IMG/VR virus record: IMGVR_UViG_3300028591_000082
DNA from: a virus
Lineage: Duplodnaviria; Caudoviricetes
Direction: 5' to 3' (one strand)
Length of the DNA stretch: 64,000 nucleotides
A program made the translations under genes and the position numbers. Positions 49,072 through 49,974 of this stretch are shown one piece after another (the stretch's first letter is position 1; every line of letters begins with the position of its first letter). The notes under the pieces are model-generated. The model saw only the letters and a list, made by a program, of their open reading frames with translations. It did not search any database and was not told where the DNA came from.

Positions 49072-49920
49072 CTACTGTAAGAGCGCTAATACACTTTGAG
49101 ATTGTGAGTTTGCTTGACTAAGCATTGCTACAGCAGACTGACTCAAAATCTGATTTTTTGTATATTCAACCATTTCCTGAGCAATATCTGCATCACGAAT
49201 TCTTGATTCAGCAGCTTGAGTATTCTCTGCGGCTACATTGATTCCTTTCTGTGCCATTTCCATTCTGTTCTGGTAAGCACCAAGATCAGCACGCTGTTTG
49301 TTAACATTTTTCAATGCTTCATCAAGAGTAGCAATTGTTAAATTTGCTTCATCTGGTGATGAAATAGAAATTGTGTTTTCATCACTCTGTAATCCTTTAA
49401 GCCCAAGTGCTGAAGCAGTCATTGTTCCAATATATGCTCTTATGTTTTGATCGCAGTTTGCACCTACTTGGAACTGCATTACAGTATCAGACTCTCTTGA
49501 GAATTTACCAGTAAGCAATGACATTCCATTAAACTGAGCAGAAGAAGCAATTCTGTCTACTTCAGCTACAAGCTGACTTACTTCTACCTGAATTTGCATT
49601 CTGTCTTCGTCTGAGTAAACACCATTTGAAGCCTGAACTGCAAGTTCACGAATTCTCTGAAGAACATCTGTTGTTTCTGAAAGATAACCTTCTGCTACCT
49701 GTACGAATGAAACAGCATCTCCAATATTTCTTGAAGCCTGATTAAGACCTCTAATCTGAGATCTCATTTTTTCAGAAACCGCAAGACCGCTGGCATCATC
49801 ACCAGCTTTGTTAATTCTTTCACCACTTGAAAGTTTTGACATTGAGTTCTGTAAATTTGCGGCATTAATGCCTTCTTGGCGTGCTGCAAACATACTAGAT
49901 AAATTGTGATTTATAATCAT
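49072..49920 (-). CDS. flaB: Flagellin, spirochete FlaB (periplasmic filament core) type
   Basis: [68 protein letters not shown] and [10 protein letters not shown] motifs; 282 aa with no D2/D3 domain. Confidence 0.97.
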
Positions 49921-49924
49921 ATTA

Positions 49925-49942
49925 ATGCGCCTCCTTGCGCAT
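49925..49942 (-). promoter_or_regulatory. SD-in-loop hairpin, candidate CsrA site
   Basis: Minus strand ATGCGC-AAGGAG-GCGCAT, 4 nt before the ATG. Confidence 0.65.
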
Positions 49943-49947
49943 AATTA

Positions 49948-49974
49948 TTATCGGATTTTTTTGTGATAACTTAA
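49948..49974 (-). promoter_or_regulatory. sigma28 (FliA) promoter
   Basis: Minus strand TTAAGTTA-N11-TCCGATAA versus the consensus TAAAGTTT-N11-GCCGATAA. Confidence 0.75.

Follow-up and report, generated by a model that had tools for sequence, protein, structure and literature searches.

A Treponema-type flagellin gene with host-like control elements in a T4-like jumbo phage

Results and discussion

A phage flagellin gene and its control region

Why should a phage encode a flagellin, and why should the gene be preceded by signals that resemble those of bacterial motility genes? The question is raised by flaB, a gene in a stretch of 64,000 nucleotides (nt) of IMG/VR virus record IMGVR_UViG_3300028591_000082, which was analysed whole and is called the window here. 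The window comes from a T4-like jumbo phage, and its candidate hosts are rumen members of the genus Treponema. We favour, with moderate confidence, the reading that the phage FlaB protein is an isoform of the Treponema core flagellin which is encoded in a self-contained cassette and sustains or remodels the periplasmic flagella under host control. Positions of the features discussed are collected in Table 1.

The product of flaB is a bacterial flagellin, both of whose terminal helical domains score above the curated Pfam cut-offs (Flagellin_N, E 9.7e-43 and 146 bits against a cut-off of 26.6; Flagellin_C, E 1.2e-25 and 90.1 bits against 23). It is 282 amino acids (AAs) long, within the span of about 280-286 AAs expected of FlaB, has only the D0 and D1 domains and begins with MIINHN, all of which are FlaB family features; its closest bacterial relatives are Treponema FlaB proteins (no more than 76% identical, with one genome considered per species), and its closest solved relative is chain 9pil_Fd, a "Flagellin" entry of 285 AAs (E 4e-115). 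It departs from the family at position 16, where the usual Leu is replaced by Glu; this change marks a distinct isoform clade (below), and membership of the FlaB family stands. Since flaB has its own sigma28-like promoter, a hairpin at its Shine-Dalgarno (SD) sequence and its own terminator, it is a self-contained unit, and beyond the terminator lies a strong sigma70-like promoter that serves the next gene.

On the minus strand the ATG is preceded, in this order, by TTAAGTTA, 11 nt, TCCGATAA, TAATT, AUGCGC-AAGGAG-GCGCAU and TAAT, with 27 nt between the end of the -10 element and the ATG. The sigma28 consensus TAAAGTTT-N11-GCCGATAA, with up to three mismatches allowed, has five matches in the window where 0.96 are expected. 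The match before flaB alone is intergenic, precedes a gene and has its CCGATAA core intact; the other four are within open reading frames (ORFs) and have a broken core. CCGATAA itself occurs three times in the 128 kb made up by both strands of the window. An earlier examination of the letters of this DNA, made without database searches (the sequence-only reading), had noticed a single sigma28-like promoter here, and it is indeed the lone intact site. As in sigma28 class-III promoters, its elements stand at promoter distance before the gene; it also fits the consensus of the host flaB promoters, which have the form TAAAGTTT-N11/12-GCCGATAA, and the mapped sigma28 promoter of Treponema denticola flaB2 has CCGATAA at -10 and TTAA at -35 (PMC9481697).

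The SD sequence AAGGAG does form the loop of a 6-bp hairpin, as the same reading had it, and is a putative CsrA-type site; as in leaders controlled by CsrA, the GGA lies in a hairpin loop that overlaps the SD sequence. The predicted energy of this hairpin is -9.1 kcal/mol (z = -2.6 relative to shuffled sequences). A GGA ribosome site is found in 42 of the 61 genes of the window and lies within the loop of a hairpin whose stem has at least 4 bp in four of the 61, and the flaB hairpin is the most stable of these four (-8.4 kcal/mol in this comparison).

flaB loci were gathered from genomes, IMG/VR, metagenomes and assemblies, and both elements recur among the phage copies. A sigma28 promoter is present 53-78 nt before the ATG in eight of about 20 distinct types of phage flaB leader (the window, L002/L099/L200, L198/199, L086, L087/L101, L088/89, L092 and L157), and a decayed version is present in L098. 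The stem-AAGGAG-stem hairpin is kept in 11 phage leaders through compensatory changes, with stems as different as AUGCGC/GCGCAU, UACCC/GGGUA, CGUGC/GCACG, AGACC/GGUCU, AAAUC/GAUUU and AUUUC/GAAAU. In an alignment of these 11 leaders, which are those with a visible stem (nine other leader types were left out, and the covariation holds for this subset), 81.5% of the cells are paired, compared with 54% in shuffles (none of 500 reaches 81.5%) and 38-52% with the partner columns shifted, and both sides have changed in five of the six pairs. Several of the remaining leaders have a GGA-loop hairpin farther upstream and an SD sequence that is free or differently folded (L003/L100, L091/L139/L142, L092, L088 and L093). 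No Rfam family was found for the flaB leaders. The synonymous divergence (dS) between the window gene and its nearest relatives is 0.7-1.0, so unconstrained leaders would have lost these features; conservation among phage-borne copies was one of the checks that the sequence-only reading had proposed, and the promoter and the hairpin pass it in the eight leader types and 11 leaders just described.

Host flaB genes and their regulators

The flaB genes of Treponema are a tandem pair. Its upstream paralogue (286 AAs) has the TAAAGTTT-N11/12-GCCGATAA promoter about 180-190 nt before its ATG and a long leader which contains a GGA-loop hairpin and, at the ribosome site, the hairpin AUUCC-AAGGA-GGAAU; this SD-in-loop design is present in 44 of 102 leaders of the sigma28-driven paralogue. 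The downstream paralogue is the one nearest to the phage protein and has no sigma28 site within 300 nt. Leaders of the sigma28-driven host gene also contain GATGTAGCCTTGTAA, an element with strong conservation, some 90 nt ahead of the ATG (L012, at about 1690-1705; L006; L036), which has no match in Rfam and is absent from the phage leaders.

Treponema denticola encodes FliA, FlgM and a flgN-flgK-flgL-fliW-csrA cluster, and has CsrA sites near the SD sequences of flaB1 and flaB2 (PMC9481697). In all five Treponema genomes tested here fliW has an adjacent csrA, the pair lying a few kb from the flaB tandem, and a FliA scores above its curated cut-off; FliW was found in 57 of 61 sampled Treponemataceae genomes. 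The sequence-only reading had noted that a host without fliW and csrA would speak against its proposal, and both are present in the five genomes. FliW, CsrA and FliA were all absent from the four flaB-bearing IMG/VR phage records (189-386 kb, two of them judged complete), and therefore any such control of the phage gene must use host proteins.

Predicted binding of FliW to the phage flagellin

Window FlaB was folded together with a Treponema FliW, which was taken from a stand-in metagenome-assembled genome that has the closest host FlaB. The predicted complex has an interface score (ipSAE) of 0.69, and the best control has 0.01; the ipSAE mark used is reached by 58 of 80 solved complexes and by two of 110 mismatched pairs. 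The model runs have at least 82% of their contacts in common, with a partner pLDDT of at least 72. The best-defined contacts connect FlaB AAs 229-237, centred on Asn233, to FliW AAs 25-28, 55-58, 94-97 and 107, and FliW is thus predicted by the model to sit on the Asn233 helix of phage FlaB. We take Asn233 to be the conserved equivalent of N255 in Bacillus subtilis Hag. No entry that holds FliW and a flagellin together was found among the PDB matches. Hydrogen-deuterium exchange with the B. subtilis proteins found protection of FliW AAs 22-28 and 95-115 and of flagellin AAs 240-260, 11-34 and 50-72, and the N-terminal 72 AAs of that flagellin suffice for FliW binding (PMC6070490); the FliW site therefore extends beyond the C-terminal Asn segment. 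The contacts predicted for Treponema FliW (25-28 and 94-107) overlap the regions protected in B. subtilis FliW. The C-terminal Asn-containing segment to which the sequence-only reading pointed is present, but it is not diagnostic, being a conserved D1 helix of flagellins that host FlaBs have alike, and any host FlaB is expected to bind FliW in the same way.

An old clade of phage flagellins

Twenty-one flagellins of phage context form a single clade (support 99/93, recovered in 99% of bootstrap trees; IQ-TREE, 57 rows) which is separate from both host paralogues, and a FastTree of 147 rows agrees; eight of these 21 rows are labelled phage by their context only. A scan of IMG/VR with an N-terminal DNA pattern gave only four loci. 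The phage genes occur in at least five gene contexts, namely beside the gp23 head gene, beside the gene for peptidyl-tRNA hydrolase PTH2, downstream of NrdD, on a 592-kb contig, and in the window arrangement. The clade is spread over many huge gut and rumen Treponema phages, on contigs of 130-590 kb.

The ratio of nonsynonymous to synonymous divergence (dN/dS) is about 0.13 among the phage FlaBs and 0.095 among the host proteins, dS among the phage genes ranges from 0.7 to 2.5, and the profile of conservation along the phage protein resembles that of host FlaBs. Two residues are signatures of the clade. Position 16 is Glu without exception in the 141 phage-clade proteins, and Leu in 209 of 214 host FlaBs, which include both paralogues; position 220 is Met in 141 of 141, and Phe in the nearest host paralogue. 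Once overall divergence is allowed for, the C-terminal D1 segment shows more conservation in phages than in hosts (ratio 0.68), and the predicted FliW interface, AAs 222-262, has no extra conservation in phages (ratio 1.16). The phage FlaB clade is old and is under purifying selection over the whole protein. FlaA-like sheath genes are present in three of the four phage records, in one of them (G009, locus L204) beside flaB; when the window was searched by tblastn with host FliW and the FlaA-like proteins of the phages, flaB was the only match.

Some individual copies deserve mention. A phage-clade flaB is found on a 306-kb contig (L064, JAZNWZ010000130.1) binned as "Candidatus Fimenecus" (Bacillota), which is probably a huge-phage contig in the wrong bin. 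A contig of 592,065 bp (P0088, loci L003-L005) carries an 85%-identical flaB among dozens of small ORFs without Pfam matches, and could be a megaphage-sized genome with the same gene. In the 386-kb record IMGVR_UViG_3300028591_000070 (G007) the flagellin match at 331374-331783 (L090, L191, L192) is split; it has a TAG within it and a match length of 845 nt, which points to a copy that is frameshifted or broken, or else to an error of assembly.

What the phage flagellin may do

If phage FlaB is an isoform flagellin under host control and part of the late flagellar programme, as we favour, host RNA polymerase with FliA (sigma28) would transcribe the gene only in cells with complete basal bodies, and the short leader would offer its ribosome site to host CsrA as a GGA loop. 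Translation would be tied through FliW to the rate of flagellin export, the protein would be exported and built into the periplasmic flagella, and the motility and cell shape of the infected cell would be kept or altered by it. FliA dependence, binding of CsrA and FliW, export and incorporation into the filament are steps that we infer. The conserved control elements, the presence of FliA, FliW and CsrA in the hosts and the FliW model together suggest that flaB is coupled to the motility state of the host, which is one of the two outcomes that the sequence-only reading had offered.

A number of points weigh against this reading. There is no phage-host pair in culture. In every phage copy Glu16 stands at a position of the N-terminal D0 helix that is otherwise almost invariably hydrophobic, and the C-terminal D0 segment is less constrained in phages than in hosts (ratio 1.51); Glu16 or the looser D0 tail could mean altered or impaired assembly. 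No flaA gene was found in the 64-kb window. A clear sigma28 promoter is kept only in the minority of leader types listed above, and in the window its -35 element overlaps a weak copy of AAGTTAA, a motif of the phage (below), perfect copies of which stand just upstream of the sigma28 -35 in L157 and L199; because of these copies at the -35, phage-driven transcription of flaB is also possible. Well-studied CsrA targets usually have two GGA sites, and the window leader has a lone GGA downstream of its -10 element, the three GGA in the 90 nt before the ATG including sites upstream of the promoter within the preceding ORF. (Two GGA-loop sites are present in L092, L139/L142 and L189; L099, L002 and L200 were scored as having two GGA, but their upstream site at -66 precedes the promoter.) Finally, in exact-match Logan contigs of a sheep-gut metatranscriptome flaB and its neighbours are covered alike, at a depth of 2.5-7. 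Six RNA runs contained part of the window stretch, and depth peaks within flaB are due to flagellins of other organisms; these RNA-library contigs give no information on the start site, strand or level of flaB transcription.

The sequence-only reading had also offered a different idea, that phage FlaB is mainly a cytoplasmic decoy for FliW which frees CsrA to repress host flagellin and other targets, its own CsrA site making it self-limiting. In its favour, fliW and csrA are found in the hosts and are absent from the phages, and the structure model supports an interaction of FliW with the Asn233 helix (0.69 versus 0.01), but the same binding is expected of any host FlaB and does not discriminate between the two models. 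Glu16, fixed in 141 of 141 copies, lies within the N-terminal stretch 11-34 that FliW protects in B. subtilis and could weaken polymerisation or change the handling of FliW; however, residue 16 is outside the confidently predicted interface. The C-terminal D0 segment is relaxed about 1.5-fold, but the predicted interface is no more conserved in phages than in hosts (1.16), and purifying selection covers the whole protein, including the ND0 and ND1 regions and the MIINHN start. A CsrA-repressible leader would cap accumulation of a decoy, the Hag-FliW-CsrA system is described as robust to perturbation in a study of it (PMC6529632), which also counts against a decoy, and sibling phages add the sheath gene flaA, whose product is a filament part without a role in the switch. 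Given the lack of extra conservation at the interface, the selection on the whole protein and the sibling flaA genes, nothing favours a FliW sponge over ordinary homeostatic control, and we consider a hijack of this kind improbable. In a related possibility, to which we give equally little credence, the Glu16 clade is a poorly polymerising flagellin with a mainly regulatory task, in which the protein, made under sigma28 from replicating phage genomes, holds FliW, or the GGA-hairpin leader holds CsrA, and host CsrA activity is reset during infection; if true, this would amount to a virus taking over a protein partner switch.

The hairpin could in principle have a purpose independent of CsrA, as a stem-loop at the 5' end of the short mRNA, which would be stabilised by it and translated less because the ribosome site is partly hidden (or, in a variant, the abundant leader RNA could soak up CsrA). 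A transcription start about 7 nt past the -10 element would place the hairpin at, or immediately beside, the first transcribed base in the window, L099, L157 and L098, the covariation of the stem is explicable by any structural role, and the window leader has a single GGA. We nonetheless think it unlikely. The SD-in-loop hairpins of the host genes are about 150 nt inside long leaders and cannot be 5' caps there; the loop is always A-AGGA-G, the form preferred by CsrA; phage leaders without the SD hairpin (L003, L091, L092 and L088) have a GGA-loop hairpin upstream; and CsrA sites have been reported at the SD sequences of T. denticola flaB1 and flaB2 (PMC9481697). Even less probable, and in our opinion very remote, is that flaB is a recently captured host gene which still has its original signals and does nothing for the phage. 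The gene and its signals are host-like and there is a broken copy in one phage record (G007), but the phage genes make up a single old clade apart from the two host paralogues, with dS of 0.7-2.5 and dN/dS of 0.13, the best identity to a host protein is just 76%, the compact leader is unlike both host arrangements, and the signature residues Glu16 and Met220 are fixed. Protection of the infected cell from flagellum-binding phages was also considered and is judged unlikely, as spirochete flagella are periplasmic.

If the preferred reading, a host-controlled flagellin isoform, is correct, spirochete viruses manage the organelle of motility and shape of the infected cell through the host's own assembly checkpoints. 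The compact 50-nt promoter-leader would then lend itself to use as a minimal construct for studying how FliA and CsrA-FliW act in Treponema, and the fixed Glu16 would offer a simple residue swap for probing isoform assembly.

Comparison with known systems

The nearest parallel to phage flaB is the flaB tandem of T. denticola (flaB2) and rumen Treponema (PMC9481697), which is of the same family and has the same CCGATAA plus TTAA/TAAAGTTT promoter, an AAGGAGG ribosome site in a hairpin loop and the same cellular regulators. The phage gene differs in being viral, in lacking GATGTAGCCTTGTAA, in forming a separate clade with Glu16 and Met220, and in its leader of about 30 nt, which is shorter than those of T. 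denticola flaB2 (124 nt) and of rumen Treponema (about 150 nt); it keeps a minimal form of the two-layer control of the host, sigma28 plus a CsrA-type hairpin. In the B. subtilis Hag-FliW-CsrA system (and with Campylobacter jejuni FlaA and Borrelia burgdorferi FlaB) a GGA hairpin likewise overlaps the SD sequence. Unlike B. subtilis, the phage leader has one GGA, the flagellin comes from a virus without its own fliW and csrA, and the binding is here a prediction of the model.

The only other phage-encoded flagellin found in the literature searched is that of the temperate Enterobacter prophage FRphi, whose FliC-P remodels the host flagella and changes motility and whose RNA-guided repressor TldR, a nuclease-dead relative of TnpB, silences host fliC (PMC13418256). 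It is a published precedent for the isoform reading. Both FRphi and the window phage encode a flagellin isoform of their own, and that of FRphi alters the make-up of the host filament. On the other hand, FRphi is a siphovirus of an externally flagellated enterobacterium, and the phages studied here are T4-like jumbo phages of spirochetes with periplasmic flagella; control in FRphi is by TldR, and that of phage flaB appears to be through host sigma28 and CsrA/FliW. No TldR was found beside window flaB, whose flanking genes encode a 66-AA zinc ribbon and a 130-AA protein without a TnpB-type Pfam match. At one other locus only, a 441-AA TnpB-like gene (L202:2628-3953; OrfB_IS605 and Cas12f-like TNB matches) ends 48 nt before the phage flaB, and its sibling L203 lacks it. 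This arrangement may recall the TldR-fliC pairing of FRphi, and a plain insertion-sequence insertion is also possible.

Cyanophage psbA, one of the auxiliary host-like genes of phages, is a phage copy of a gene for a highly expressed host structural protein; it is under purifying selection, forms phage-specific clades and props up photosynthesis in the infected cell. The target there is metabolism, whereas that of phage flaB would be a motility organelle, and flaB keeps host signals and not phage promoters. By these analogies, phage flaB may sustain a host organelle as psbA does photosynthesis, or it may swap isoforms as in FRphi.

Genome context and other features of the window

The window has a G+C content of 29% and no tRNA genes in its 64 kb. 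Sequencing runs of sheep, goat and bovine gut metagenome DNA contain the stretch, and the longest contig that encodes the window FlaB protein is 222,619 bp. Among its genes are those for a T4-type baseplate protein and a gp23-like major head protein (phrog_138), an SbcCD-like nuclease pair, a dUTPase, a helicase, a DNA methylase and the PTH2 hydrolase. An origin of flaB in a prophage or host island was rejected, the surroundings being T4-like structural and replication genes, and neither a flaB tandem nor fliW-csrA is found near the window gene.

Table 1. Positions of the flaB elements and other features in the 64,000-nt window
Feature	Position	Strand	Remarks
sigma28 -35-like element, TTAAGTTA	49967..49974	minus	overlaps stop codon of the upstream 66-AA ORF
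sigma28 -10 element, TCCGATAA	49948..49955	minus	11-nt spacer after the -35 element
6-bp hairpin, AUGCGC-AAGGAG-GCGCAU	49925..49942	minus	ends 4 nt before the ATG at 49920
Shine-Dalgarno AAGGAG	49931-49936	minus	hairpin loop; putative CsrA-type site
flaB, spirochete core flagellin	49072..49920	minus	Pfam domains and Treponema FlaB relatives
Glu16 codon	49873..49875	minus	phage-clade signature; Leu in host FlaBs
C-terminal D1/D0 helix, AAs 222-262	49135..49257	minus	includes Asn233; predicted FliW contact surface
Asn segment of the sequence-only reading, AAs 226-243	49245-49192	minus	
Two-way intrinsic terminator	48996..49017	minus	55 nt past the flaB stop
Zinc-ribbon ORF, 66 AAs	49971..50171	minus	upstream of flaB; same position in close relative L098
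182-AA ORF	50173-50721	minus	hypothetical
56-AA ORF	50737-50907	minus	hypothetical
PTH2 peptidyl-tRNA hydrolase gene	51116-51580	minus	1.2 kb from flaB
Cysteine-repeat ORF	45642-46184	minus	
Cysteine-repeat ORF	46200-46787	minus	
Perfect palindrome, 36 nt	46788-46822		two AAGTTAA motifs
Cysteine-repeat ORF	46823-47275	plus	

The ORFs of 182, 66, 130 and 56 AAs around flaB have no informative match in Pfam, PHROG or the Atlas, and no flaB-linked chaperone or anti-sigma factor was found among the neighbouring ORFs. The 182-AA and 56-AA ORFs upstream of window flaB also occur immediately before the flaB genes of other phages (L157 and L198/199; L103 and L201), and their recurrence beside the gene argues that the flaB neighbourhood has been inherited with insertions and deletions. 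The PTH2 gene, which is close to flaB in the window, directly follows it in another phage lineage (P0068).

Three ORFs of the window are rich in CxxC-type cysteine repeats (for example CTDCRLCIDCNANCQNS) and have no Pfam match; they are divergently arranged around the palindrome listed in Table 1. The motif (A)AAGTTAA, two copies of which lie in that palindrome, occurs 27 times in the window, 25 times on the plus strand (for example at 1087, 12221, 18090, 20010, 25438, 26457, 41950, 47276, 54444 and 61211), and 19 copies stand 11-67 nt upstream of gene starts on the same strand. The motif is probably a promoter element of the phage itself, perhaps a late one, and has AAAGTT in common with the sigma28 -35 consensus.

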